From a virus (Duplodnaviria > Caudoviricetes), in IMG/VR virus record IMGVR_UViG_3300022173_000189, positions 6,829 to 70,828 of that record: a DNA stretch of 64,000 nt; one strand, 5' to 3'. Of the stretch, positions 4,884 to 42,315 are shown piece after piece (the first letter of the stretch is position 1; the number at the start of each line of letters is the position of its first letter). The notes beneath the pieces are model-generated. The model worked only from the letters and a program-made list of their open reading frames with translations. It was not told the DNA's origin and searched no databases. The position numbers and the translations under genes were made by a program.

Positions 4884-5533
4884 TTGGTTTTCTTGTCCGC
4901 AATGGGCGTCAAGGTGACGGTGTTTGGCAGCGCCAGGGTCAACGGCACCTGCTGCGCAGCAGTGAAGTCCTTCCAGCGGCGTTCATGGAAGTCAGGCTTG
5001 GGTATGACCACCTTCTCCGTGCTCAACGGGTTTTCCACTTTGAGCGAATCCGCCACCGCCTGGATGGCAGTGAAGAACCGCTCGTAGCGCACACGGCTAA
5101 AGCTTCCGTCATCAGCCAGGAACACCTTGGAATTGAACTTGGCTGCCAAGGTCTCCACCACGTAGTCGTTCACGTCGAGCTTGGCGTTCGCCTCCTCCAG
5201 CATGTCGAACGTCTTCTCCACCAAGGCAGGATCAGTGTTGTTGTACTTGCTGGTAAAAGAGACGCGGATGGACTCACCCCTGTCGTCCACCAGGACAACG
5301 CTGGAGATGGGGCTGGCCGGGTCCGCGCAGTTGCGGGGCAGGATCTCGACCAGGGCTTCCTCTTTGAGCAGGACCGCGAGTTCCTTCATGGTCTCCTCTG
5401 CTGCCTTCTTTTCGGCAGCAGCCTCGTTGTAGTCACGGACATCCGTGCCGGAGATTTCAATGGTGAGGATGTCAGAGGTCCGAGTTGGTTCAGACTTTCG
5501 GACCAGGCGTCTAGGGAGCTTTTTAAGTGGCAT
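4880..5533 (-). CDS. Hypothetical protein
   Basis: ATG 5533 (MPLKKLP) lies just downstream of a sigma70-like promoter. Confidence 0.75.
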   Translation of the reverse strand: MPLKKLPRRLVRKSEPTRTSDILTIEISGTDVRDYNEAAAEKKAAEETMKELAVLLKEEALVEILPRNCADPASPISSVVLVDDRGESIRVSFTSKYNNTDPALVEKTFDMLEEANAKLDVNDYVVETLAAKFNSKVFLADDGSFSRVRYERFFTAIQAVADSLKVENPLSTEKVVIPKPDFHERRWKDFTAAQQVPLTLALPNTVTLTPIADKKTK

Positions 5534-5584: not shown

Positions 5585-6850
5585 CTGTATGATGACTGCG
5601 GGGATGGTGGACTGGAGCTGACCTCCAAAACGGTCGGTTGCGGTGACCACGCCCTGGACGGCACCGCCAGCCGGATAGCCCAGAGTGTCCACCATGACGC
5701 TGCGGCCCCAGAGGACCAAGGTGGAGGGGAGCACACCTGTAGGCTGAAGGAACTGCCAGCGGTAAGTCACGATGTCACCCTGCGGGTCCACGGCGGTGGC
5801 CACGTAGCGCACCTTGGCATCTGCGGCCACGGTGTCAGGATTGGGGTGGGCGTCACTGGCCGAGAGGTCCAGCTCGATCTCCGTCGCGATGGTCTGGCGA
5901 TAGACCTTGAAGGTCATGTCCTCGGCCACCGTGTTGGCGACCAGGAAGACATCCACGGGCACGTCGATGGTCTTGCCGGTCGTGGTGTTGGCCACCGTGA
6001 CGATGGCGCGCTTTGGCCCGCCCGTCTCATTCTCGATGGACTTGACCACGCTGTTCTTGAGCGAGTTGCCCGCCAGCACTTCCGTCACGCCGGTCGAGAA
6101 GGAGTTGCTGGCCCAGCCGTTGGTGCCGTAGAAGCTCCAGAGGAAGTCCAGGGTGTTCACCACGTCGCTGGAGAAGACCACGAAGCTCACCGAGCGGCCT
6201 GTGCCGATGCGATGGTCGGGCAGCGTGGTGGCGTCCGCTGTCAGCGTGTTGACCTCGGTGCTGGCCGTGATGGCCGGTGGTGGAGGGACGCCGCCGCGCA
6301 GGGAGAAGTCGATGACCGTGGTGCCGCCCGCCGTATCGACCAGCTTGGCGAAGATGGTCTGGGTCTCCTCGACCACGCGGGTGAACACGTTGAGCGTGCC
6401 GTTGTACTGCGCCACGGTTCCGGCGTAGGTGCCGTCAATCAGTCCGAGCGTTCCGCTGGTGCCACCGCCCAGCGGCACGTCCTCCGCGTCATACCAGAAG
6501 AAGGAAATCTGCTCGTTCTCCACGTCGTAGGCGCGGATGGCAATCACCGAGGTGAACGGGAAGAAGTTGTCGTTTTGCGAGATGCTCGGACTGGAGGCAA
6601 TGCTCGGCGGGTTGTTGACCTCCAGGCTGCCGCTGCGCACCTGATACTGCCCGTCCTCGGCCACGATGGTCACCGTGAAGCGCAGCAGGTTCCCGTCGTG
6701 CGGGTCGCCGCCCATGTTCAGCTTCTTGGTCGTGTAGGGGATGGCCGTCGCGCTCGTCGTTCCATCCCACCAGTCCCAGACGTAGGCGTAGTTGCCAGCG
6801 GGAACTCCGGTGATGGTGAACTCAGCGGTCGTGCCTACTTGGTGTCTCAT
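5582..6850 (-). CDS. Virion structural protein with PKD/Ig-like domains
   Basis: YVWDWWDGT and DPQGDIVTYRW motifs; beta-rich T/V/S composition; coupled to 1525-aa gene. Confidence 0.7.
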   Translation of the reverse strand: MRHQVGTTAEFTITGVPAGNYAYVWDWWDGTTSATAIPYTTKKLNMGGDPHDGNLLRFTVTIVAEDGQYQVRSGSLEVNNPPSIASSPSISQNDNFFPFTSVIAIRAYDVENEQISFFWYDAEDVPLGGGTSGTLGLIDGTYAGTVAQYNGTLNVFTRVVEETQTIFAKLVDTAGGTTVIDFSLRGGVPPPPAITASTEVNTLTADATTLPDHRIGTGRSVSFVVFSSDVVNTLDFLWSFYGTNGWASNSFSTGVTEVLAGNSLKNSVVKSIENETGGPKRAIVTVANTTTGKTIDVPVDVFLVANTVAEDMTFKVYRQTIATEIELDLSASDAHPNPDTVAADAKVRYVATAVDPQGDIVTYRWQFLQPTGVLPSTLVLWGRSVMVDTLGYPAGGAVQGVVTATDRFGGQLQSTIPAVIIQ

Positions 6851-9800
6851 AGCGTGCCAACGAAAATGGTGCCAAAGGACGGGAACGCCAGCGTGCCTGC
6901 ATCAGCGATCACCACATCGAAGTTGGTGCCGCTGCGGAAGAGCAGGTCGCTGCGCTTGAGCGGCGTGCTGCCGGTGATGATGTCCGAGAGGGGAGCCGTG
7001 CTGACCACCGTGTCGTTCTGCGTGTAGATGGTGGACTCGTGGTCCCAGCGCACCACGGTGCCATAGCTGTTCAAGCTGGCCAGCCAGCCACCTGGGATGG
7101 AGCCGGTCGAGGTGCCGCTGGCCACCGCAGGGTAAAGCACGATGGAGGGACTCGTGCCGCTGCTGCCGATGGTCACCTTGTAAAGCTCCGTGGACATCCG
7201 CCGCAGCCGGTAGCTGTTGATGACGAGCTGGCGCTGGGTGCCGCGCTTGGGTTCGCTGAAGGCGTTGGTCCAGTCGAAGGACAGGAGCCACTCGCCAATC
7301 ACGCCCGAATCCAGCTCGAACTCGAACTCGTCGGTGCCCGTGGCGTTGTAGCCGGTCTTCCCGGAGAGGAGACGCCGCTGGAGGATGGCGGAGTCCACTG
7401 TGATCTCGACCACGAAGCCGTCGAAGTCCTCGTCGAGCTGGCCGATGTTGCTCGACTCCACTTCGAGCCGGTAGGTGCCAGGGACGAGCGTGCCCGTATT
7501 GGTGAACTCCAGGACGCCGTTGTCGTCGAGCGCGGCCACCGCAGGCGTCTGCTCATTGCCAAATGCCGAGTCGTTGTCCGCCTCGGTCCAGCGTGTCCAG
7601 GCATCGGTGACGTTCTCGACCACCTGGCTGTTGAGATACATCCAGAGCGGAGGCCGGGTGAGCGTGCCGCTGTCAGCCTTCTGATAAACGATGCTGCCCG
7701 AAGTCACGGAGAGGATGGTGCCGGGCGCGGCCACAACCACCTCAGCGCCGGTCGGCTGATCCGCATAACGCAGGCTCAGCGGGTGGAGCACCTGCACCTT
7801 CGTTGTGCCGTTGGTCAGCACCTGGACGTGTCCGGTGGCCGAGACCGTGGAGTAGCTGAAGAGCGTGCCTGCCGTGACCTCAAGCTGGCCGGGGTAGATG
7901 GTGCCCTGGGCCGTGAAGACCGACACGCTGCCGGTGCTCGTGACTTCCTGGAAGATCCGGTTCACGGCCAGCTCGTCGTCACTGCGCTCGCGCACGGTGC
8001 GTTCAGCCTGCATGGAGACGGTGCCCGCCAGCGACAGCAGGGTCACCTCATAGACGTAGTTGTCGTCACCACGAATCCAGGCCGCTTCCCGCACCGGGTT
8101 GGTCTCGGTGATGTTGTTGGGCCAGGGGTTGTTGGTGCCGCTGCTGACCATTGTCGCCACCGTGCCGCTGCTCGTGCTGCCGGAGGAGAGGACCAGGTAG
8201 GTGCCTGCGGCGCTGCTGGCGCTCCAGACAGCGTTGACGCCGGGCAGCTCACCGTCGCTCGTGCTGACCACGGTCTGGCCACCGGCAGTGACGTTGTAAA
8301 ACTGCTGGCCCAGCCGATAGACGGCGGGCAACTGACGGCCACCGCCCAGGCCGACTTCCTTGAAGCGCGACTCGCCCTGATAGCGGCCCGTGCTGTCGTA
8401 GCGGCGGACCAGCGCCAGCTTGGGCGTGCGCAGCCAGGCGGGCGGCGCGATGGGCGTGACGAAGCCCGTCTCCTGGACGAAGAAGGTGTAGCGGTCGTGC
8501 CGGTTGAGCGTCTCGAAGAGACCGACCCGGTAGGTGACGGCGGTCTTGACCGGCCCGTGATTGCGGATGCGCGCCAGGTCGAGGGCCGTCTTGGTCATCT
8601 CCCACATGCGCAGGTCGCGCAGCGAGAAGGCCCGTGGACCACCGACAATCTCCAGCATCTCGTCCAGCTCGTTGAACGACCGGATGGAGGTCGATAGCAA
8701 GGTGTAGGTCGGTGCGGTGCCCAGCGTACCCACGCCGTAGAGCAGCTCGGTGTTGGTCAGCGCCAGCGCGATGTAGTTGAAATCGTTGACGGTGATCGGG
8801 ATGGTGACCGCCAGGTAGCGCGTCGCGTCTGCATTCTCCAGATAGACCAGGAGCGAGGACGCCACGTTGTCCAATTCAATTGACAGCGGCCCGTAGGTCA
8901 AGATGGCCTGCTGACCGGCCACGCCAGTGGAATCCTCCGGGCGGACCCAGAAGGTCATGGTGAAGCCGTCGCTCTCGTCACGCGCTGCGGAGCGCCAGAC
9001 CACCGTTCCGGGGCGGAAGCGCGTGGACCATCCGTAGCTGCTGAAGGTGCGGTCGGCGGGCAGCAGGCTGATGTAGCCGATGTCGGCCACCTTGGCGATG
9101 CGGTCCACCGGCATCAGGTCATCCTCGGCGTGCTCGTTGAAGGGCATCCAGCAGGCGAGCATCTCGCGATGGTGGAGCGCATTGAATCCAACGGGGTCGG
9201 CGACCAGGACGCCATTGACCAGGCCGATGTGGAAGAGTTCCGCGCCCGTGTTCAACAGCGTGTCCAGGTCCGTCTTGCTGTTGACCAGCGCAATGTCATC
9301 CGCCGAGAGCGTGGCGAGGTCTTTGAATGTGCCCTTGAAGCCGATGGCCACCTGGCCCGGCTCATAATTCTCGTAGTCGCGGGGGCTGGAGGTGAAGCGC
9401 ACGACGCCGGTCGCAGGCGACTCGATGCCGTACACGTTGTATTCCACGCCGTCATGGCCGGGCACTGCCAGCGCCGTCTGCACCACGTCCGTGGCCACGT
9501 CCTCCACGCTGCTCAGGTAGCTGTCCACCTCGGCGGACTCGCCGCCGATCACGAGGTCACGACGCCAGGGATACTCGTCGGCAAGCTGGTCGAGCGAATC
9601 CACGTCATCTTCAGGCCGGGCCTGGTAGGAGACGGTGCCGTCATACTTCTCCTGCAAGGTCGGCTCTGGTCGGATGACCTCGGTCGAAGTGAGCGTCCAG
9701 CGCGCCACGACGTTGGTGCCCGTGCCTGCTGTGGCCAGGGTGAACCGATACGCGCCGTTGCTGTTGTCCAGCGAGCCGGTCAGGCCCGGTGCCTTGTAGT

Positions 9801-11424
9801 GGAAGATGGATGGGTCGTTGCGGTCGATCTCCGCCACAGCCGTGACGATGGAGTTGCCGGTCACCACGTCGATGGCCGCGATGTATTCAGGCAGCGGTGC
9901 CAGCGCGGTCGTCCCGGAGTAAGCCAGCGCAGTGCCGCTGGAGAAGAGCACGTCCTCGTCGTCGTAGGCCGCGTAGATCGCGCTGTCTTTGACCAGGAAG
10001 CCGGTCAGGATCTTCCGAGGGAACCGTGTCGCTGCCCGCACTTCATCCAGGTTCCGGGCCACCTGGTTTCCTGCGGACAGGAACGAGTCCATGTTGATCT
10101 GCCGGTCGGTGCCACTGGCCTGCACGCGGGTCGTGATGACCGTGCCGGGCACCGTGCCCACGCGCACGAGGAAGTCGCTCGTCGTCGTGCCGGTGCTGAT
10201 GGAGCCGGAGAACCAGGGGCGAAACGGCGTGATGGCCGTCGTGCCGAAGTTGGCCACGTCCGGGTCTGCCGCGAGGTCTTTGTTCCGGCGCATCGACGAC
10301 GTGCCATAGATGTCCTCCACGCGGTCGAAGTCCGCTGCCAGGCCGAGGTCGAAATAGCTGCTCCGATACTTGATGGCCGAGAGCCGGTCGAAGATGTCGA
10401 GCACCTTCAGTGTGCCGGTGCTGTCCGCCGAGAGCGTCGTCACCTGGATGGCCAGGTTGTTGAAGGACGCGCCTTCCGCGATGGCCTGGAAGCGCACGCC
10501 CGCTCCGTCAGGATCGACGTAAGCCTTCTTGTGTGGCCCGCCGATGCTGTTGGTGCCGGAGGAGCCGAGCACGTACTGGCCGTCTGCCGGGTGCTGCACG
10601 GTGCCGTTGGCCACCGACAGAACGGTCACCGTCACGTAGGGGCTGAAGCCGTTCACCGCCTGCGGATAATACTGCGTGCTGCTCGTGCCGTGGTGGACCG
10701 TTCCCGCCCATCCGTAGAACGGGCCGTCGTCCATGATGTGCGGGTTGTAAAACGGGTCGAACGCCTGCTGCGGCTGATACTCCGGGACGGCAGTGAAGTC
10801 CGGGTCGTTGGCAGCGTTGCCGACATCGCTGGGCACGCGAGGCGACAGTCGGCTCCAGAGCGGCGTGACGCGGATGTCGTCGAAGCCGAGGATGCGGCCC
10901 AGGGTCGTGTAGCTCTCGGCTGTACCTTTGACCTTCAGGCGTGGGAAGTAGGTCGAGAGGATGTGACTCTTGGAGTCCTCCGTCGCCGTGCTGCTGTAGA
11001 GGATCGCGCCGATGGTGGCCGCGAGGTAGTCCAGCGTGCTGGCATCAACCAGGCGCAGTGGGTCCAGTCCGTAGCGCACGGGACCGAGCACATCCAGCGG
11101 GAGGTCCAGCTCGACTGCCGCCCATTGTGCCAGCCCTGGCCTGCCTTCAGCCGGAGTGCTGTCGGTGATGTCCAGCGAGCGGGTGAAGATTTTGCCTTGG
11201 GCGCTCTGCAAGTCCACCAGCACCACGTTGTTGCCCAGCTCCGGCAGGCCGGAGGTCTGGAACAGCAGGTCCATCTTGCGCGAGACTGAGCGCAGGTCAC
11301 CGAGACGGTCCTCGAACCCGCCGACCACTGCGGCGATGAGGCCGCGCTCATCCAGCTCGACCAGCCCGGCAGGGAGCCGCTGGTAGAGAAACTGTTCCGG
11401 CAGATTACGAATTGTCGCAGGCAC
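6847..11424 (-). CDS. Large baseplate wedge/tail protein with LamG-like domain
   Basis: N-terminal LDYLAATIG..RLKVKGTAESY..LGF (baseplate wedge/P2 gpI-like); MTFWVRP..NYIAL..LRDLRMW (LamG). Confidence 0.75.
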   Translation of the reverse strand: MPATIRNLPEQFLYQRLPAGLVELDERGLIAAVVGGFEDRLGDLRSVSRKMDLLFQTSGLPELGNNVVLVDLQSAQGKIFTRSLDITDSTPAEGRPGLAQWAAVELDLPLDVLGPVRYGLDPLRLVDASTLDYLAATIGAILYSSTATEDSKSHILSTYFPRLKVKGTAESYTTLGRILGFDDIRVTPLWSRLSPRVPSDVGNAANDPDFTAVPEYQPQQAFDPFYNPHIMDDGPFYGWAGTVHHGTSSTQYYPQAVNGFSPYVTVTVLSVANGTVQHPADGQYVLGSSGTNSIGGPHKKAYVDPDGAGVRFQAIAEGASFNNLAIQVTTLSADSTGTLKVLDIFDRLSAIKYRSSYFDLGLAADFDRVEDIYGTSSMRRNKDLAADPDVANFGTTAITPFRPWFSGSISTGTTTSDFLVRVGTVPGTVITTRVQASGTDRQINMDSFLSAGNQVARNLDEVRAATRFPRKILTGFLVKDSAIYAAYDDEDVLFSSGTALAYSGTTALAPLPEYIAAIDVVTGNSIVTAVAEIDRNDPSIFHYKAPGLTGSLDNSNGAYRFTLATAGTGTNVVARWTLTSTEVIRPEPTLQEKYDGTVSYQARPEDDVDSLDQLADEYPWRRDLVIGGESAEVDSYLSSVEDVATDVVQTALAVPGHDGVEYNVYGIESPATGVVRFTSSPRDYENYEPGQVAIGFKGTFKDLATLSADDIALVNSKTDLDTLLNTGAELFHIGLVNGVLVADPVGFNALHHREMLACWMPFNEHAEDDLMPVDRIAKVADIGYISLLPADRTFSSYGWSTRFRPGTVVWRSAARDESDGFTMTFWVRPEDSTGVAGQQAILTYGPLSIELDNVASSLLVYLENADATRYLAVTIPITVNDFNYIALALTNTELLYGVGTLGTAPTYTLLSTSIRSFNELDEMLEIVGGPRAFSLRDLRMWEMTKTALDLARIRNHGPVKTAVTYRVGLFETLNRHDRYTFFVQETGFVTPIAPPAWLRTPKLALVRRYDSTGRYQGESRFKEVGLGGGRQLPAVYRLGQQFYNVTAGGQTVVSTSDGELPGVNAVWSASSAAGTYLVLSSGSTSSGTVATMVSSGTNNPWPNNITETNPVREAAWIRGDDNYVYEVTLLSLAGTVSMQAERTVRERSDDELAVNRIFQEVTSTGSVSVFTAQGTIYPGQLEVTAGTLFSYSTVSATGHVQVLTNGTTKVQVLHPLSLRYADQPTGAEVVVAAPGTILSVTSGSIVYQKADSGTLTRPPLWMYLNSQVVENVTDAWTRWTEADNDSAFGNEQTPAVAALDDNGVLEFTNTGTLVPGTYRLEVESSNIGQLDEDFDGFVVEITVDSAILQRRLLSGKTGYNATGTDEFEFELDSGVIGEWLLSFDWTNAFSEPKRGTQRQLVINSYRLRRMSTELYKVTIGSSGTSPSIVLYPAVASGTSTGSIPGGWLASLNSYGTVVRWDHESTIYTQNDTVVSTAPLSDIITGSTPLKRSDLLFRSGTNFDVVIADAGTLAFPSFGTIFVGTL

Positions 11425-11510: not shown

Positions 11511-13229
11511 ATGACCACTGATGACCAAGAACCCGTCCAGCAGAAGAAGCTCACGGGCGAACAGCTCGACGTAATCAAGAATCCGGTCAAGCCCGGCCAG
11601 GTGACCAAGATTACGGCCTATGCAGGCACGGGCAAGACCAGCACGCTTTCCGCCTACAGCGAGTTCCACCACCAGGACTCCGCCCTTTACCTGGCCTTCA
11701 ACAAGAGCGTGGCAGAGGAGGCGCGCAACCGCTTCCAGCTCCATGTGACGCCCAGCACGATCCACGGCCTGGCCTACCGCTCGGTCAACGCCCGGAAGTT
11801 TGGCCCCATCGCCTCGCGTCTGCGCTACGGCCTCGTGATGAAGCTATTTGGTCTCAACACGCTTTACAGCGGTGCCGCGCTCATCGCCACGTTGGACAAC
11901 TTCCTAAACAGCGCCGCCGACAAGACCCTGCCGCTGCACATCGTCGATCCGAGAAAGACCTTCAAGCCGGATCAACTGGTGGCGATGTCGGACAAACTTT
12001 GGGAGAAGATGCGCGATGGCAAGGACCAGGTGCCAATGACCCATTCAGGCTACCTGAAGCTCTATCAGCTCTCCAAGCCTTACATCCCGCAGAAGCTCAT
12101 CATGCTGGACGAAGCGCAGGACACCAACCCTGTGACCTTCGACATCGTGATGCGCCAGGTAAACGAGCACAAGGCCAAGCTCATCATGGTCGGCGACCGT
12201 CGTCAGGCCATCTACGGCTGGCGTGGAGCCATCAACGCGATGGACATGGAGACCCAGCAGACCTTCCACCTGACCCAGAGCTTCCGCTTCGGCCCGCAGG
12301 TCGCCCAGCTTGCCAACGGCATCCTGGCCCGTGTGTTCAAGGAGACCGTCATGCTCAAGGGCTACCAGGAGCGTGACACCCGCATCGTCTCGGTCGCACC
12401 GACCAAACACACCTGCGTGTGCCGCACGAATTACGTCCTGGTCACGGACGCCATCGGCCAGGCGATGCTGGGCCGCAAGGTCTGCATCGTGGGTGACTTC
12501 GAGCCGTTCCTGCGCGACCTGCTGGACACCTTCAAACTGTGGGCCGGGCACTACAACGACATCCAGTCCCCGTACATCCGGGCCTTCGGTTCGTTCCACC
12601 GGCTGAAGGATTTCGCGGAGAGTGGATTCGACCAGGAGCTGGCCGCGAAGGTCCAACTGGTCGAGCACTTCCAGGTGAACACGCCGACCGCCATTGAGGT
12701 GCTTCGTCGGAACATGGTGAGTGAGGACGCGGCGGATGTGCTCTACACCACGGTCCACAAGGCTAAGGGCCGGGAGTGGGCCAACGTGCGGCTAATGGAC
12801 GACTTCGTGAAGGACGTGCCCTACCTGAAGCCAGGCGAGGTGATGACGAGAGAAGAGGAGGAGGAGTTCCATGCGCTTTACGTCGCCGTCACCAGGCCGC
12901 TGGATACTGTGGTGCCGACCTCGCTGCTCTACCTGCTGCGGGAATACGTCATGCTCAGAGCACCTGCCGGGTCTGACGCGCAGCACGCCGCTCCGCCCGA
13001 AAGCGTCGCAGCTCCTCTGTTTGAACCGGAAATGGTAGATCAGGAAATGGGTCCACCGTCAGTCGAGACCCCACCACCTCCGCCAGCGCCGACTCCGCAA
13101 CGTGGCAAGAAGGCTTCCGGTTTTCCGCCGAATCTTCTGGAGAATCTTGAGAAGCAGGTGGCTTATCTCCAAAAGGAAAGCGAAGAGTTATCCCGTCGCG
13201 GGAGGAAAATACCAGCTCACGAGGAGTGA
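11511..13229 (+). CDS. UvrD/Rep-family (SF1) DNA helicase
   Basis: AYAGTGKT, LDEAQD, VGDRRQAIYGWRGA, LTQSFRFG, TVHKAKGREW, YVAVTR. Confidence 0.95.
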   Translation: MTTDDQEPVQQKKLTGEQLDVIKNPVKPGQVTKITAYAGTGKTSTLSAYSEFHHQDSALYLAFNKSVAEEARNRFQLHVTPSTIHGLAYRSVNARKFGPIASRLRYGLVMKLFGLNTLYSGAALIATLDNFLNSAADKTLPLHIVDPRKTFKPDQLVAMSDKLWEKMRDGKDQVPMTHSGYLKLYQLSKPYIPQKLIMLDEAQDTNPVTFDIVMRQVNEHKAKLIMVGDRRQAIYGWRGAINAMDMETQQTFHLTQSFRFGPQVAQLANGILARVFKETVMLKGYQERDTRIVSVAPTKHTCVCRTNYVLVTDAIGQAMLGRKVCIVGDFEPFLRDLLDTFKLWAGHYNDIQSPYIRAFGSFHRLKDFAESGFDQELAAKVQLVEHFQVNTPTAIEVLRRNMVSEDAADVLYTTVHKAKGREWANVRLMDDFVKDVPYLKPGEVMTREEEEEFHALYVAVTRPLDTVVPTSLLYLLREYVMLRAPAGSDAQHAAPPESVAAPLFEPEMVDQEMGPPSVETPPPPPAPTPQRGKKASGFPPNLLENLEKQVAYLQKESEELSRRGRKIPAHEE

Positions 13230-13707
13230 AGGTGTCTGAGGGTCCGCCCTCTCCAAAGAGCGTGGTGCCCACCAGCTCGTTCGCACGGCCCTTCTGCACG
13301 TAGGCCAGCGTCGCGTGTGGCTTGTAGGATGGCCAGGTGTCTCCGTGGGGCTGGGAGGCCGCGATGCGTAGATTGAGACGGCGCAGGCCAGGGCTGTACA
13401 CCGGCATGATCACCACGTCGTAATCCGGCTTGTCGTCGAAGAGCCGGATGCGGCCCAGGCGCACGGCAAAGGGCTTGGTCGTCTCGATGATGCGTTTGAA
13501 GCTCTCGGACGCCCCATCAGCAATCAGTCCAAACTTGCAGGTGACGTGAGGCTCATCTTCCCGACCGTCGTCAGCGAGCGCGTCCTCCGGGATGTTCAAC
13601 TCCGACCAGCGCAGCATCGCGTCAGCCTGTTCAGGCGGGATGTCGATCTGGGTCGAGCTGAAGCGATGGGCTTCGCAGATGAGGGAGACAAAGGAACGGG
13701 TCTTCAC
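12955..13707 (-). CDS. 2H phosphoesterase (T4 gp57B/Acb1-like)
   Basis: Two HxT motifs (EPHVTCKFG, YKPHATLAYV); GTG start overlaps stop of upstream gene. Confidence 0.8.
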   Translation of the reverse strand: MKTRSFVSLICEAHRFSSTQIDIPPEQADAMLRWSELNIPEDALADDGREDEPHVTCKFGLIADGASESFKRIIETTKPFAVRLGRIRLFDDKPDYDVVIMPVYSPGLRRLNLRIAASQPHGDTWPSYKPHATLAYVQKGRANELVGTTLFGEGGPSDTFTPRELVFSSRDGITLRFPFGDKPPASQDSPEDSAENRKPSCHVAESALAEVVGSRLTVDPFPDLPFPVQTEELRRFRAERRAARQTRQVL

Positions 13708-14006
13708 GCGGTCGTGCCGAGTTCGCCACCCTGTCCATCCTGGAGCGTGACGTTGTGGTAACCGTCCTCGGACCAGATGCTCAGCATGTGTGGCTGGCCA
13801 CCCATCCACTGCTTGATGCTCTGCCAGATGTCACCCTGCACCGGGATCTGCTGAACCAACCGGCCACGGGAGATGTGGGCGGCGGTGCCGCGCTCCTTGT
13901 CCACGCGGACGTAATCACCTTCCTTGTCCTGCTGCCACAAAGACTGGAGCCGCTGGGCGTCGTAGCTTTCTTCGAGGAGATTGGAAACAACCGAGGCCGC
14001 GTTCAC
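13704..14006 (-). CDS. Hypothetical protein, paralogue of 14003-14359
   Basis: Shared LW..DK.G.YV and IWS..(G)NVTL.DGQG.(D/E)LG; N-terminal VVSNLLE. Confidence 0.8.
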   Translation of the reverse strand: MNAASVVSNLLEESYDAQRLQSLWQQDKEGDYVRVDKERGTAAHISRGRLVQQIPVQGDIWQSIKQWMGGQPHMLSIWSEDGYHNVTLQDGQGGELGTTA

Positions 14007-36075: not shown

Positions 36076-36214
36076 ACATCGTTGGAAACTCATATTCAAC
36101 CTGGCCTGGGATCAGACTGGTTTGACTATTGACCTCCAAAAATTGCCCGACGTGATACTTGAGAGATTCTTAACCTGGCGGAACGAGAAAGTTGAAGCAG
36201 AGAAGACCAAATGA
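36062..36214 (+). CDS. Small protein, possible gp51-like hub assembly partner
   Basis: 50 aa, directly after gp26-like gene. Confidence 0.45.
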   Translation: MSDSEHRWKLIFNLAWDQTGLTIDLQKLPDVILERFLTWRNEKVEAEKTK

Positions 36215-37041
36215 TAGACGGTATTTTCGATACACCGAGCATCTTTGCGCGTGCGTGGTACGCCGCGATGCGAGTAGAGCCTGACCCAGCGGCGGCGGTG
36301 GAAGCCGCCCTGGTGTCAGTCGCTGCGCTCATCTCACCCCAGAGCAGGCGCATCGAAGACAAGATGGACCGGCTGCTATTCTGCTGGGATGGAGAGAATG
36401 CGCGGGACAAGGGCCGGGCGGAGAAACCGGAGCACTTCAAGGCTTCGATGGTCGTGTTCCGTGAGATGCTCACGGAAATCTTCGGCGCAGTCCACGCAGA
36501 GCATCCTGATTTTGAAGCTGACGACGCCGTGGCCACAGCAGCCCGGCACAGCGACGCCGACGAGGTGTATGTCATCTCCGGCGACAAGGACTTGACCCAG
36601 CTCCAGGGCAGCAACATCCACTACTACTGCCTCAACACGAAGGCAGTCCTCTCCACGTCGTTCATCTGCCGCAAGTGGGGCGTGAAGCATCCCAGCCAGG
36701 TGGCCATCGCGCTTGCGATCATCGGGGACCGCGTGGATGGTATTCCTGGGATTCCAAAGTGGGGTCCGGTGAAAGCCAAGTCGTTGTTCAGTTCCGTGAA
36801 GCCTCACATGGACTTCATGCAGGCGTTCCGCGTGATCGAGGCCCAGGTGCCTGTGGAGCTTCGAGAAGCCTTCTACTCGTCGCTGGAGCTGACGCTCCTC
36901 GAACGAGACCTGCCTGGTCTGCCTCCCGCGTCTGAACTGACGCTCATGCCCATCAAAGAGGCCCGTAATCTGGAGATGCCGGACTTCTTCCAATTCTACG
37001 TTTCCGTCCACTCGCGCTACGCGCCTGTGGATGTCAATTAG
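36211..37041 (+). CDS. 5'-3' exonuclease / T4 RNase H-like (FEN family)
   Basis: FCWDG, FEADDAVA, SGDKDLTQL, IGDRVDGIPGIPKWGPVKA. Confidence 0.93.
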   Translation: MIDGIFDTPSIFARAWYAAMRVEPDPAAAVEAALVSVAALISPQSRRIEDKMDRLLFCWDGENARDKGRAEKPEHFKASMVVFREMLTEIFGAVHAEHPDFEADDAVATAARHSDADEVYVISGDKDLTQLQGSNIHYYCLNTKAVLSTSFICRKWGVKHPSQVAIALAIIGDRVDGIPGIPKWGPVKAKSLFSSVKPHMDFMQAFRVIEAQVPVELREAFYSSLELTLLERDLPGLPPASELTLMPIKEARNLEMPDFFQFYVSVHSRYAPVDVN

Positions 37042-37097
37042 TGCTGTCTTCAGTTTTCTCTTGTTTACAAACAACTGTATGGTTACTGTCCATACAA

Positions 37098-37307
37098 ATG
37101 GACACTCGCTTCATAAATGTGAACGCGCAGTCCAACGCGGTTCCTTGCCTCCCTTGTTGTGGCACTGGCCGGAACTTCAACGTGGATTGCGGATCAAATC
37201 ATGCCTGTGAACCCTGCAAGGGCCGTGGGTGGATGGTGAAGACCGTCATCTTCGCGCTGTCGCCTCCGCCACCGTCGTCGAACACGACGGTCGCCCATGC
37301 CGCGTAG
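37098..37307 (+). CDS. Small DnaJ-type Zn-finger protein
   Basis: CLPCCGTG and CEPCKGRG. Confidence 0.65.
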   Translation: MDTRFINVNAQSNAVPCLPCCGTGRNFNVDCGSNHACEPCKGRGWMVKTVIFALSPPPPSSNTTVAHAA

Positions 37308-37308
37308 T

Positions 37309-37471
37309 CCTTGGATGGTTCCTTGAGCGACGCCTGCGTGCCTAGCTGTTTAGACACGGCAGAGGGCAAGGCGCACCGAAGGCTCAGATACAGGCGTTGG
37401 GACGCTGGCGCAATGGCTGAGACGCAGTAGGGCGCGTATCATGCAGGCGTCGCTCAGGGAATCAGCCCAGG
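37309..37471 (+). ncRNA. Candidate structured non-coding RNA
   Basis: 24-bp stem 37317-37340/37440-37463 with three G-U pairs on the + strand, plus internal stems; fills the intergenic gap. Confidence 0.55.
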
Positions 37472-37481
37472 TAGTTAAGGC

Positions 37482-38045
37482 GTGAAGCTCAACCTCGTCG
37501 TGCTGTTGTTGGCCGCGACGGTCTGGGCTGGATGTCAACTGCCGCCAGCTAGTCCAGCCCGTCTGTCTCCGCCTGTTGTCTCTCCTGCGGTTGCACCTGT
37601 CGCGCCGACTCCCATTGTCGCGGCAGCGGCTGCTCCTGCCCCGGTGGCTCGCCGGGCGCGCACTGCGGCAGTCCTTCCGCCTGCTCCTGGCATTCGTGCC
37701 GCTGCGGCTCCAGAGGCGGTGTTCTCTGCCGCAGGCGGTCCTCTCTTCCCGACTGTGACCAACCGCTGGCACGCACTGACCAACCGCTACCCACGTCTTG
37801 GCACCAACAGTCCCACACTCTTTACCAAGCATCCGATTCAGATGCTCAGCGACGGCACCAACTGCGTCGTGGTCTGGTGGACCTCCTACACCAACTGGAC
37901 AGCCCAGTATTCCACGGACCTGATGACCTGGGCCACCATATCCAAAGGCACGACCCTGCTCACCAATGCCCCGGTCGTGGTCGTTGAATACGGATCTGGC
38001 CGCATCTTCGACAAGAAATTTTATCGCCTCATCCCCACCCCATGA
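37482..38045 (+). CDS. Putative lipoprotein with P/A-rich linker and C-terminal ..YSTDLxxW..FYRL domain
   Basis: Signal peptide with lipobox-like VWAGC; WTAQYSTDLMTW..KFYRL. Confidence 0.75.
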   Translation: MKLNLVVLLLAATVWAGCQLPPASPARLSPPVVSPAVAPVAPTPIVAAAAAPAPVARRARTAAVLPPAPGIRAAAAPEAVFSAAGGPLFPTVTNRWHALTNRYPRLGTNSPTLFTKHPIQMLSDGTNCVVVWWTSYTNWTAQYSTDLMTWATISKGTTLLTNAPVVVVEYGSGRIFDKKFYRLIPTP

Positions 38046-38413
38046 AAGCCGACGCCATTGTTAAAAGACTGGTCGAAGAAACGAACAACTACCGCACGCT
38101 GGTCGCCGTGGACGTGTACGGCCTGGACGAAGGCTGGCACGCAGAGGGCAAGGTCACGATCAACTGGTCGCTCGAAATGGATGCCCGTGCCTGGGGCATC
38201 AAGGAGATGACGCCCGTAATCCTCTCCATCGAAGGCAGCGCGGAGATGACGCTCATGGCTGACACCGAAGACCAGACCAGAGAGCTGCCGCTCACCTGGC
38301 GCGCAGGCGATCCTGCCTTCACGGTCGATACTGATTTCAAAGGTGGCACGAGCATCCTCCCGAAGACTGTGGAAGTGGACCTGAAGCGTAAGCGCATGAT
38401 TGTCCAGTTCTAG
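38042..38413 (+). CDS. Hypothetical protein with N-terminal AIVKRLVE motif
   Basis: 123 aa, ATGA-coupled. Confidence 0.75.
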   Translation: MKADAIVKRLVEETNNYRTLVAVDVYGLDEGWHAEGKVTINWSLEMDARAWGIKEMTPVILSIEGSAEMTLMADTEDQTRELPLTWRAGDPAFTVDTDFKGGTSILPKTVEVDLKRKRMIVQF

Positions 38414-38418
38414 GGAGC

Positions 38419-38763
38419 ATGTACGAGCTTCGTGGTCCATGCAGTGAGCGTCGGCTTCGGCACGATGTAGAGCACTCAATCGAGTCGCTCCGTCTGTTTG
38501 CCAAGAAAAACGGCTTGAAACTCGTCAATGGTTATGGAAACTCCCGTGTTAATGACCAGACCAGACGTGTCAAGATGTACCAGGGCACCAAGCTGGTCGC
38601 CAGGTTTGAACTCAAGGAAGCTCCCCGCCGCGAACAGAATCCCGTGGTGGATGATGGTGGCGGCAATGTTGATGACGGCTCCCGCAGCGATACGCGCACA
38701 GTCGTACGAAGAGAAAGCCGTGGCAGCCGTCCTGATGGCGGAAGCATGGAACCAAGGCTCTAA
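38419..38763 (+). CDS. Hypothetical protein
   Basis: 114 aa; 3' end overlaps hydrolase gene in another frame. Confidence 0.5.
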   Translation: MYELRGPCSERRLRHDVEHSIESLRLFAKKNGLKLVNGYGNSRVNDQTRRVKMYQGTKLVARFELKEAPRREQNPVVDDGGGNVDDGSRSDTRTVVRRESRGSRPDGGSMEPRL

Positions 38764-39088
38764 AGGAATGCTGGGCGTGGGCGAGGTCATCGCCACCCGC
38801 GCCCATGACAACCGTCAGACGCCGTGGGGCGTCATTACTGCCGAAGGAGCCTTCTCCTGCCTGCGCCGCCGCTCCATCGACCAGTGGATTCGCCACTTCC
38901 AGACCACCAAGGACTGGCCATCGGTCCTGGCCATCGCCCAGCGCGTCGTGCAAAAGCCCGGCAGCCTTCCCGGATTGACCAAAGGAGCCAACCACTTTAC
39001 CCGCCGCGAGGAGAAGCCTCGCTGGGCCAGGGGCCATCGCCCCGTGCTCGTCCTCAAAGACCACGCCTTCTACAAGCTGCCAACTTAG
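38651..39088 (+). CDS. Cell-wall hydrolase (SleB/Hydrolase_2-like) with signal peptide
   Basis: VLMAEAWNQG..GVGEVIATR, GAFSC, TKGANHF..PRWA..KDHAFY; hydrophobic N-terminus with AIRA|Q. Confidence 0.88.
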   Translation: MMVAAMLMTAPAAIRAQSYEEKAVAAVLMAEAWNQGSKGMLGVGEVIATRAHDNRQTPWGVITAEGAFSCLRRRSIDQWIRHFQTTKDWPSVLAIAQRVVQKPGSLPGLTKGANHFTRREEKPRWARGHRPVLVLKDHAFYKLPT

Positions 39089-42058: not shown

Positions 42059-42062
42059 TTTT

Positions 42063-42150
42063 GCGGTGGGCCTCACCGGAGAGTAGGCCAGAGAAACCGC
42101 TGCGCGGGTAGGCCAGGAGAGAAAACCTGTTCGCCCGCGCATTTTCTTTT
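42063..42150 (+). terminator. Tandem hairpins ending in U-rich tract (attenuator/terminator-like)
   Basis: GCGGT/ACCGC and GGCCT/AGGCC stems; TGCGCGGG/CCCGCGCA stem followed by TTTTCTTTT. Confidence 0.5.
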
Positions 42151-42315
42151 ATGAGCAACGAAAGAGCCACGCCCCGGCAGGTCGCCTACATGCAGGAGCG
42201 CGGCATAGATCATCCTCCGAACGTGACGAAGGCTGAAGCGACCGAAATCATCACGGAATATCAGGCGCGTCACAGTTCTGAGGGCGAACGACATTTGATG
42301 GATTTGGAAGATTGA
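42151..42315 (+). CDS. Small protein with ATPRQ..TKxEA..II motif (54 aa, not in ORF track)
   Basis: MSNERATPRQVAYMQERGIDHPPNVTKAEATEIITEY. Confidence 0.65.
   Translation: MSNERATPRQVAYMQERGIDHPPNVTKAEATEIITEYQARHSSEGERHLMDLED

Follow-up and report, generated by a model that had tools for sequence, protein, structure and literature searches.

A candidate structured RNA with a long closing helix and an invariant arm ahead of the lysis-type genes of an uncultured giant T4-like phage

Introduction

Among the long RNA helices known as RNase III sites are the stems flanking 16S and 23S rRNA in the rrn operons, the R0.3-R1.3 sites of the T7 early mRNA, the lambda N leader and sib. Phage T4 produces two stable small RNAs, species 1 and 2 (rnaC/rnaD), which are cut from a longer phage transcript and are located in its tRNA cluster. 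Y RNA/YrlA and retron msr-msd RNAs are two further classes, both found in phages or mobile elements, and the sarcin-ricin/loop-E bulged-G motif, with its AGUA/GAA consensus, is a common docking module for protein or RNA. The promoter-early stem-loops (PeSLs) of T4-type phages are short, multi-copy elements with a strong sigma-70 promoter and a terminator hairpin (Arbiol et al. 2010, PMC2839356).

Structured RNAs in large environmental phages are almost unexplored. We analysed a 64-kb stretch of DNA, hereafter the window, which is part of a 70.8-kb IMG/VR viral contig, 31% complete according to CheckV. T4-type genes in the window include those for the tail sheath, the portal, gp25, gp5-like and gp53-like baseplate proteins and UvsX/RecA, and near-complete relatives of the phage have genomes of 225-238 kb; the source is an uncultured giant T4-like phage. 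An earlier note on this DNA had proposed a structured non-coding RNA in one of its intergenic gaps, and we followed up this proposal.

The element in this gap resembles RNase III helices in that long double-stranded RNA flanks an RNA domain or stands between cistrons of a phage polycistronic transcript, and in that its helix exceeds 20 bp, has wobbles without mismatches and changes in a compensatory way while its sequence drifts. Unlike the T7 and lambda sites, which are hairpins of ~50-60 nt, simple or bulged, that carry no conserved cargo, it encloses a 100-nt three-way junction, and with its frozen 69-nt arm it comes closer to an rRNA precursor stem around a functional RNA, the cleavage being putative here. 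Like rnaC/rnaD, it would be a small structured RNA of a T4-type phage with no promoter to itself, and it would presumably arise by maturation of a polycistronic precursor; unlike them, it stands between protein genes in a window with no tRNA cluster, a comparison made by description, the T4 RNAs being absent from Rfam. It shares with PeSLs the nature of an intergenic stem-loop in a T4-type genome, at a place where cassettes come, go and are swapped among relatives (loci L004 and L007, below), but it is single copy, has a large conserved interior and carries no promoter- or terminator-like site.

Two other likenesses concern architecture. As in 5S rRNA (RF00001), a three-way junction is closed by a helix of both ends, and one arm has a predicted loop-E-type loop beside the junction (AGUAGGG, 3' strand), with a helix and an apical loop further out. 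The first arm of the element is, however, much shorter and its closing helix twice as long, no covariance match was obtained at E≤10, and the resemblance is an analogy, not membership. As in Y RNAs/YrlA (RF02553) and retron msr-msd RNAs, a long basal stem of the RNA ends holds a structured module. In Y RNAs it is the stem that is conserved and binds Ro; here the module is the frozen part and the stem drifts. No Rfam match to YrlA or to retrons was found, and the 64-kb window yielded no gene for Ro/TROVE, RtcB or a reverse transcriptase.

Results

Location of the element

All genes from 34265 to ~52000 are on the + strand. In the order around the element, the gene for a 5'-3' exonuclease of the FEN/RNase H type (36211-37041, +) comes first, followed by that for a 69-aa protein with two CxxCxGxG(W) zinc-finger motifs (37098-37307, +; stop codon TAG at 37305-37307) and by a lipoprotein gene (37482-38045, +), which has a GTG start at 37482, a Shine-Dalgarno sequence AAGG at 37476-37479 and a signal peptide ending in ...VWAGC. 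The lipoprotein gene heads a block with a 123-aa protein and an endolysin (38528-39088), the latter matching Pfam Hydrolase_2 and PHROG 938. The gap between the zinc-finger and lipoprotein genes measures 150-174 nt. The intergenic placement of the element and its position directly 5' of the lipoprotein/hydrolase genes, as first described, are therefore correct.

Upstream of the zinc-finger gene, an A+T-rich block (37058-37107, +; 36% G+C) is almost invariant in the window and in two related loci (L004 and L005, below). It holds CTCTTGTTTACAAACA and carries a perfect palindrome, TGTCCAT-ACAA-ATGGACA, with the ATG of the zinc-finger gene in its 3' half; CTCTTGTTTACAAACA and the palindrome are each single copy in the window. 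This block is likely to be the promoter/operator of the transcript that contains the element; alternatively, it could form a hairpin hiding the zinc-finger start codon. A sigma-70 promoter scan of 36500-38500, this block included, gave 0 promoter-like sites.

A 24-bp closing helix and its interior

The segment 37317-37340 (5' strand of the closing helix, +) pairs with 37440-37463 (3' strand, +) at 24 of 24 positions, base i pairing with base 74780-i. The letters were as previously noted, including three G-U pairs on the + strand (G37318-U37462, U37323-G37457 and G37338-U37442), which become A.C mismatches on the - strand. An inverted repeat search extended the arms to 32 nt (37309-37340 and 37440-37471; 84% complementary, 99 nt apart), and these are the longest inverted repeat within 250 nt in the window. 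The RNA fold of the + strand reached -90 kcal/mol (z = -5.7, 0 of 200 shuffles as good), and that of the - strand -70.4 kcal/mol (z = -3.45). The window has 24 gene-free gaps that are 80 nt or longer, and among these the gap with the element had a z of about -7, against no better than -3 in the others. The element is confirmed as real, with a fold far beyond chance.

Most pairs of the closing helix have a predicted probability of at least 0.98 in both sequence variants that we found (see below), and the helix forms with a probability of ~1.0 in both competing folds of the interior. The imperfect outer extension (37309-37316 on the 5' side, 37464-37471 on the 3' side, both +) appears in the inverted repeat and in the minimum free energy fold. 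Its 5' side starts 1 nt past the upstream stop codon, in a register that is not conserved in the second variant, and its 3' side ends 10 nt before the lipoprotein GTG. The outward pairing to 37309/37471 proposed earlier is present but weak, and its 3' half (37455-37471) occurs in L004 as well, where the element is absent, and so is not peculiar to it.

The consensus fold is a three-way junction formed by the closing helix, a short hairpin (hairpin 1) and an invariant arm. Some of the inner pairings of the earlier note, CTCAG/CTGAG and GCGT-TGGG-ACGC, belong to this predicted fold, but CCTA.CTG/CAGTAGG is part of an alternative, rod-like fold. The alternative pairing of TGCGTGCCT with AGGGCGCGTA, from which a switch had been suggested, can indeed form, again as part of the rod-like fold. 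By inspection, no conserved loop-loop pseudoknot was seen between hairpin 1 and the invariant arm.

Comparison with catalogued RNAs and repeats

Rfam 15, with 4227 models including riboswitches, ribozymes, 5S, 6S, SRP, YrlA and tmRNA, gave no match overlapping the element at E≤5 when 3 kb were searched and none at E≤10 with the 181 nt alone, and a gathering score was reached nowhere in the window. The novelty claimed for the element thus held against covariance models, and the element belongs to no catalogued RNA family. It had also been described as neither tRNA-like nor a simple terminator, and both statements stood: ARAGORN found no tRNA or tmRNA at 37300-37480, and a terminator scan of the + strand from 36500 to 38500 found no intrinsic terminator, the stem being followed by AAUCAGCCCAGGUAGUUAAGG, with no U-tract.

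A match to a known DNA-level repeat had been named as evidence that would count against the proposal; the defining features of PeSLs and of miniature inverted-repeat elements (MITEs) were looked for and were absent. A PeSL cassette was rejected on the lack of a promoter-like site (36500-38500) and of a terminator and on the single copy in the 70.8-kb contig. One hexamer alone is -10-like, TATCAT (37437-37442), and it reads CATCAC in L005. A MITE or other interspersed palindromic repeat was rejected on the single copy, on collection scans that returned only locus L009 and on the lack of a direct repeat at the borders. A retron msr-msd was rejected as well, the downstream genes being those of the lipoprotein, the 123-aa protein and the endolysin, with no RVT among the 61 scanned ORFs. 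As for possible partner genes, Pfam found none for RNase III, Ro, RtcB, reverse transcriptase or Cas in the 61 window ORFs. Of RNase III sites, at least about 20 bp of uninterrupted double-stranded RNA is expected, and the closing helix has 24 contiguous pairs in the window and 23 in L005.

Related loci and a second variant

A search with the FEN protein among 5.8 billion proteins retrieved three close lineages, whose FEN proteins are 87% (L004), 78% (L005) and 66% (L007) identical to that of the window. A pattern scan of JGI metagenomes added L009, which is 98.7% identical to L005 and has an identical element. The element of L005, shared with L009, is the only other sequence variant found and occupies the same genomic place as that of the window; next to the FEN protein, the flanking zinc-finger and lipoprotein sequences of this lineage are 55% and 50% identical to their window counterparts.

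Other searches returned little. Single-protein scans of IMG/VR with the FEN protein and the lipoprotein found no close relatives, a blastn search of 601 nt against GenBank phages found no match, and exact or degenerate core patterns found no copy in 2.9 million viral contigs. In 241 million metagenome records the core pattern had one match, L009, and the apical core pattern had none in 185,579 species genomes; five genome matches of the basal pattern were discarded as chance (10-14 bits with the covariance model, fold z of -1.5 to +1.4). The covariance model R1, which was built from the two variants, is mainly sequence-driven and may miss distant homologues; it found a single copy and no second one in the 70.8-kb contig itself and in the fetched loci, and no copy in 47 IMG/VR records of related T4-like phages, which were searched in full and include three near-complete ones. 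Lipoprotein and endolysin searches for more lineages brought no new element-bearing contigs, and in the more distant FEN relatives L010 and L011 (~50% identity) the gene order differs after FEN. No specific description of such a motif came up in a search of the literature.

The zinc-finger protein (68-70 aa), whose CxxCxGxG motifs are of the DnaJ type with a W after the second one, occurs in four of four lineages. It is kept with or without the RNA element, with an identity to the window's protein of 74% in L004, 55% in L009 and 39% in L007. The gene callers of the public assemblies missed it in L004, L005 and L007, and its single family match, a weak one, is PHROG 22955 (unknown function). 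In L005 the frame is shifted, with AAAA at 4919-4923 vs AAA at 523-526 of L009, which is either a homopolymer assembly error or a recent pseudogene.

Three modes of evolution within the element

The three compartments of the element, i.e. the closing helix, hairpin 1 and the 69-nt arm, follow three different evolutionary modes. In L005, 9 of the 46 nt of the closing helix are substituted, each by a transition, at a rate close to that of the background. Two pairs have changed on both sides (A-U to G-C and C-G to U-A) and five on one side via G-U, so the pairing is kept. On the + strand 23 of 23 pairs are held in the window and in L005, vs 20 of 23 and 19 of 23, respectively, on the - strand, where the rest are A.C mismatches. 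Nine random transitions would keep all helix pairs with a chance of 0.018, 3.3 broken pairs being expected. The two strands differ in folding energy by 20 kcal/mol (window) and 25 kcal/mol (L005), the + strand being the more stable in both.

Hairpin 1 (37340-37367, +), the variable arm of the junction, consists of a 4-bp base, a bulge, an upper stem of 5-6 bp and a 3-nt bulge on the 3' side. Between the window and L005 it differs by ~40% substitutions and a 4-nt indel, yet its shape is unchanged (-9.6 and -11.5 kcal/mol, respectively) and every variable pair is kept; its - strand versions fold poorly.

The third compartment (37368-37436, +) is 100% identical between the window and L005/L009. 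These 69 nt are the longest run of identity in an alignment of 4.5 kb with 76% identity overall, ahead of a run of 47 nt in second place. Across the core, 23 codons show no synonymous changes, third positions being invariant too. Recent gene conversion instead of selection could in principle produce this perfect identity.

The earlier claim of RNA-level selection with + polarity agrees with these comparisons, the nine stem substitutions of L005 keeping the pairing on the + strand only. A test for covariation had been suggested, and it was answered in part: the stem changes preserve pairs, but 130 of 500 shuffles reached the observed value. Since two variants make this shuffle control weak, the case is built on four lines together, namely the direction of the wobble pairs, the transition test, the conserved shape of the hairpin and the frozen core. 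As read from these substitution patterns, the element is shown to be selected at the RNA level with + polarity. For an element of this size the evidence is unusually clean, with a helix that drifts by pair-preserving changes and a core that outconserves the adjoining baseplate and replication genes.

Predicted structure of the invariant arm

Because the arm shows no variation between the variants, its internal fold is predicted from thermodynamics alone. The predicted helices, on the + strand, are P2 (37371-37377/37430-37435), P3 (37382-37387/37417-37423) and an apical hairpin (37394-37400/37405-37411). Taken alone, the 69 nt are of unremarkable stability (z = -1.6). Between P2 and P3, the strand C-GAA-G (37377-37381, +) stands opposite the strand C-AGUA-G (37425-37430, +) in an internal loop of the sarcin-ricin/loop-E type. 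In the consensus fold AGUA faces GAA between Watson-Crick flanks, and the loop may adopt the S-turn of the bulged-G motif.

The rod-like fold lies 3.4 kcal/mol above the three-way-junction minimum in the window; in L005 it is itself the minimum, by 4.8 kcal/mol. Its pairs join invariant sequence to the fast-evolving segment of hairpin 1, and one of them is broken in L005, so that the comparative evidence favours the three-way junction, which appears better supported by evolution. A conformational switch would be possible energetically.

Occupancy of the site in relatives

In the outgroup L007, the zinc-finger gene ends with a stop codon at 2515-2517 and the lipoprotein homologue starts with GTG at 2540, which leaves a spacer of 22 nt (2518-2539). 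This spacer, TCGTTCCTGCGCTACTTAAAGG, resembles the first bases of the 5' arm of the element joined to the last bases before the start codon. The lipoprotein homologue of L007 has a signal peptide with no lipobox cysteine (VKLSLLLVFLLAGSIQA), and its public call is 41 codons too short. A terminator-like hairpin in the apparent L007 'gap' was dismissed, this stretch encoding the signal peptide of the lipoprotein homologue according to tblastn and translation.

In the closest relative, L004, homology to the window breaks off at 37307 and is found again from 37455 onwards. In place of the interior of the element, L004 has (5098-5318) a strong, G+C-rich hairpin of 14 bp followed by UUAUUUUU, which is terminator-like, and an ORF of 43 codons (MKVSDPFPPLFVAGFLVFSAFMHNRSLLMVSFILLAAYGGWVI) with two hydrophobic segments. 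Judged by its place before the lipoprotein and endolysin genes, this ORF could code for a holin- or antiholin-like protein. In L004 the 3' arm still has its outermost bases (AAGGAATCA), so this lineage probably goes back to an ancestor with the element, the interior of which was replaced later.

L004 and L007 dispense with the element, and it is shown to be accessory, being present, absent or replaced among close relatives. The site is a hot spot of insertion and replacement at the head of a lysis-type block.

Discussion

We tentatively propose, with a confidence a little short of even, that the element is an intercistronic RNA domain of the + strand whose helix is processed by a ribonuclease of the RNase III type and whose frozen arm binds a protein. 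As the element has no promoter or terminator of its own, it would at least initially be part of a polycistronic mRNA, running from the zinc-finger gene into the lipoprotein/endolysin block. The closing helix of 23-24 bp, a length within the size range of RNase III substrates, would be the substrate of a double-strand-specific RNase; its design is that of rRNA precursor stems and of the T7 and lambda sites, and a processing site is proposed for this reason. Cutting might uncouple the upstream and downstream cistrons, and the inner domain might be released or framed by it as a stable RNA of ~100-140 nt, in which the invariant arm would serve as a sequence-specific binding site for a phage or host protein. 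Several observations count against this explanation: Pfam found no gene for RNase III or an RNA-binding partner among the 61 ORFs of the window, the fold of the interior is ambiguous, with its rod-like minimum in L005, the covariation statistics from two variants are thin, the invariant arm has no unusual stability when folded alone, its perfect identity might stem from gene conversion, and L004 and L007 do without the element. A bolder version, which we regard as distinctly unlikely, makes the frozen arm a new class of phage small RNA, excised by RNase III and acting in trans on a host factor via the sarcin-ricin-type loop. Its targets might be a ribosomal or translation protein, an RNase or an immune sensor, and it might act as a decoy or timer heading the lysis genes, swapped for a small membrane protein in the sister phage.

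Several features of the locus could be read in another way. A cis-regulatory leader, riboswitch-like or bistable, would set the expression of the lipoprotein and endolysin genes with the arm as sensor of a ligand or protein and the two folds as on and off states, with neither processing nor an RNA acting in trans. It would fit the place of the element, which heads the lysis-type block and precedes the lipoprotein start by 10 nt, the conserved core with two near-isoenergetic interior folds, of which the junction prevails in the window and the rod in L005, and the L004 locus, where a terminator and a small membrane ORF would be another way to gate the downstream genes. We nevertheless consider it unlikely. 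The AAGG and the GTG of the lipoprotein gene lie outside the structure in both folds, and the closing helix persists in both, so nothing that touches the expression signals switches. The locus shows no terminator/anti-terminator arrangement, no U-tract and no Rfam aptamer match, and the pairs of the rod-like fold draw on the segment that evolves fast. The hot spot, which is empty in L007, filled in the window and in L005 and exchanged inside in L004, would also suit an element acting as DNA, whether as a PeSL-like recombination site or cassette boundary, as an origin-type cruciform or as a site bound by a protein. The + strand folded as DNA is also significant (z = -4.8), and the invariant 69 nt could as well be a DNA binding site. 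Against this, all six of six independent wobbles are G.T on the + strand, and a cruciform would carry 3-4 mismatches in one of its hairpins; the element is, moreover, single copy in the contig and absent from the 47 related records and from three public collections save for L009, of the L005 lineage, and the promoter and terminator that define PeSLs are missing. An action as DNA is very unlikely in our view.

The form of the element, with terminal inverted repeats of 24-32 nt around ~100 nt and with its presence or absence among relatives, also recalls a miniature transposable or interspersed repeat (MITE, REP, ERIC or Correia type) that landed between two genes. Such repeats would be expected in several copies; one copy was found per genome fragment, none in the 47 related records, and L009 only in the collection scans. 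No target-site duplication is visible at the borders, and arms that change in a compensatory way around a frozen interior are the reverse of a decaying MITE, which leaves this origin extremely improbable. Hardly more credible is a small peptide encoded by the core, either by a + strand ORF of 34-39 aa ending in ...GKAHRRLRYRRWDAGAMAETQ or by a - strand ORF with RALLRLSHCASVPTPVSEPSVRL. Both frames are open across the core in both variants, but long antisense ORFs are common in DNA of 60% G+C. The + strand ORFs start with TTG or GTG inside the 24-bp stem with no ribosome-binding site, and their frames differ upstream of the hairpin-1 indel. The - strand ORF, antisense through the lipoprotein gene, has 160 aa in the window vs 59 aa in L005. 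Coding was accordingly rejected as the cause of the core conservation, the frames either shifting at the indel, starting inside the stem or differing threefold in length; the 0 substitutions in 69 nt, third positions included, are unlike every real gene nearby.

Returning to the processed intercistronic domain, an optional element with a frozen core speaks for an accessory RNA that stands where the lysis genes begin and has a sequence-specific partner. Should it be processed and have a host factor as its target, jumbo T4-like phages would gain an accessory function based on RNA, and biochemistry a compact module made of a long stem and an S-turn arm. If it is a processing or stability element only, it would be an ordinary type of feature with a new shape. 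The element, known in two variants, is real, RNA-level and specific to its lineage, and the evidence that it is functional is good.

Three other places in the window were seen during the analysis. ARAGORN called a 'tRNA-???' with a two-base anticodon at 11295-11371 (-), at the 5' end of an ORF of 1525 aa (6847-11424, -); Rfam finds no tRNA there and the call is probably a false positive. The stretch 13230-13545, left uncalled by simple ORF picking, folds at -146 kcal/mol on the + strand (z = -2.4) and at -114 kcal/mol on the - strand (z = +0.8); it overlaps a - strand ORF (12955-13809) annotated as Acb1-like and may simply be coding. The gap at 42059-42311, in a vWA/PP2C/kinase block, has the second-best z of the gap folds, with -2.4 on the + strand and -3.0 on the - strand.
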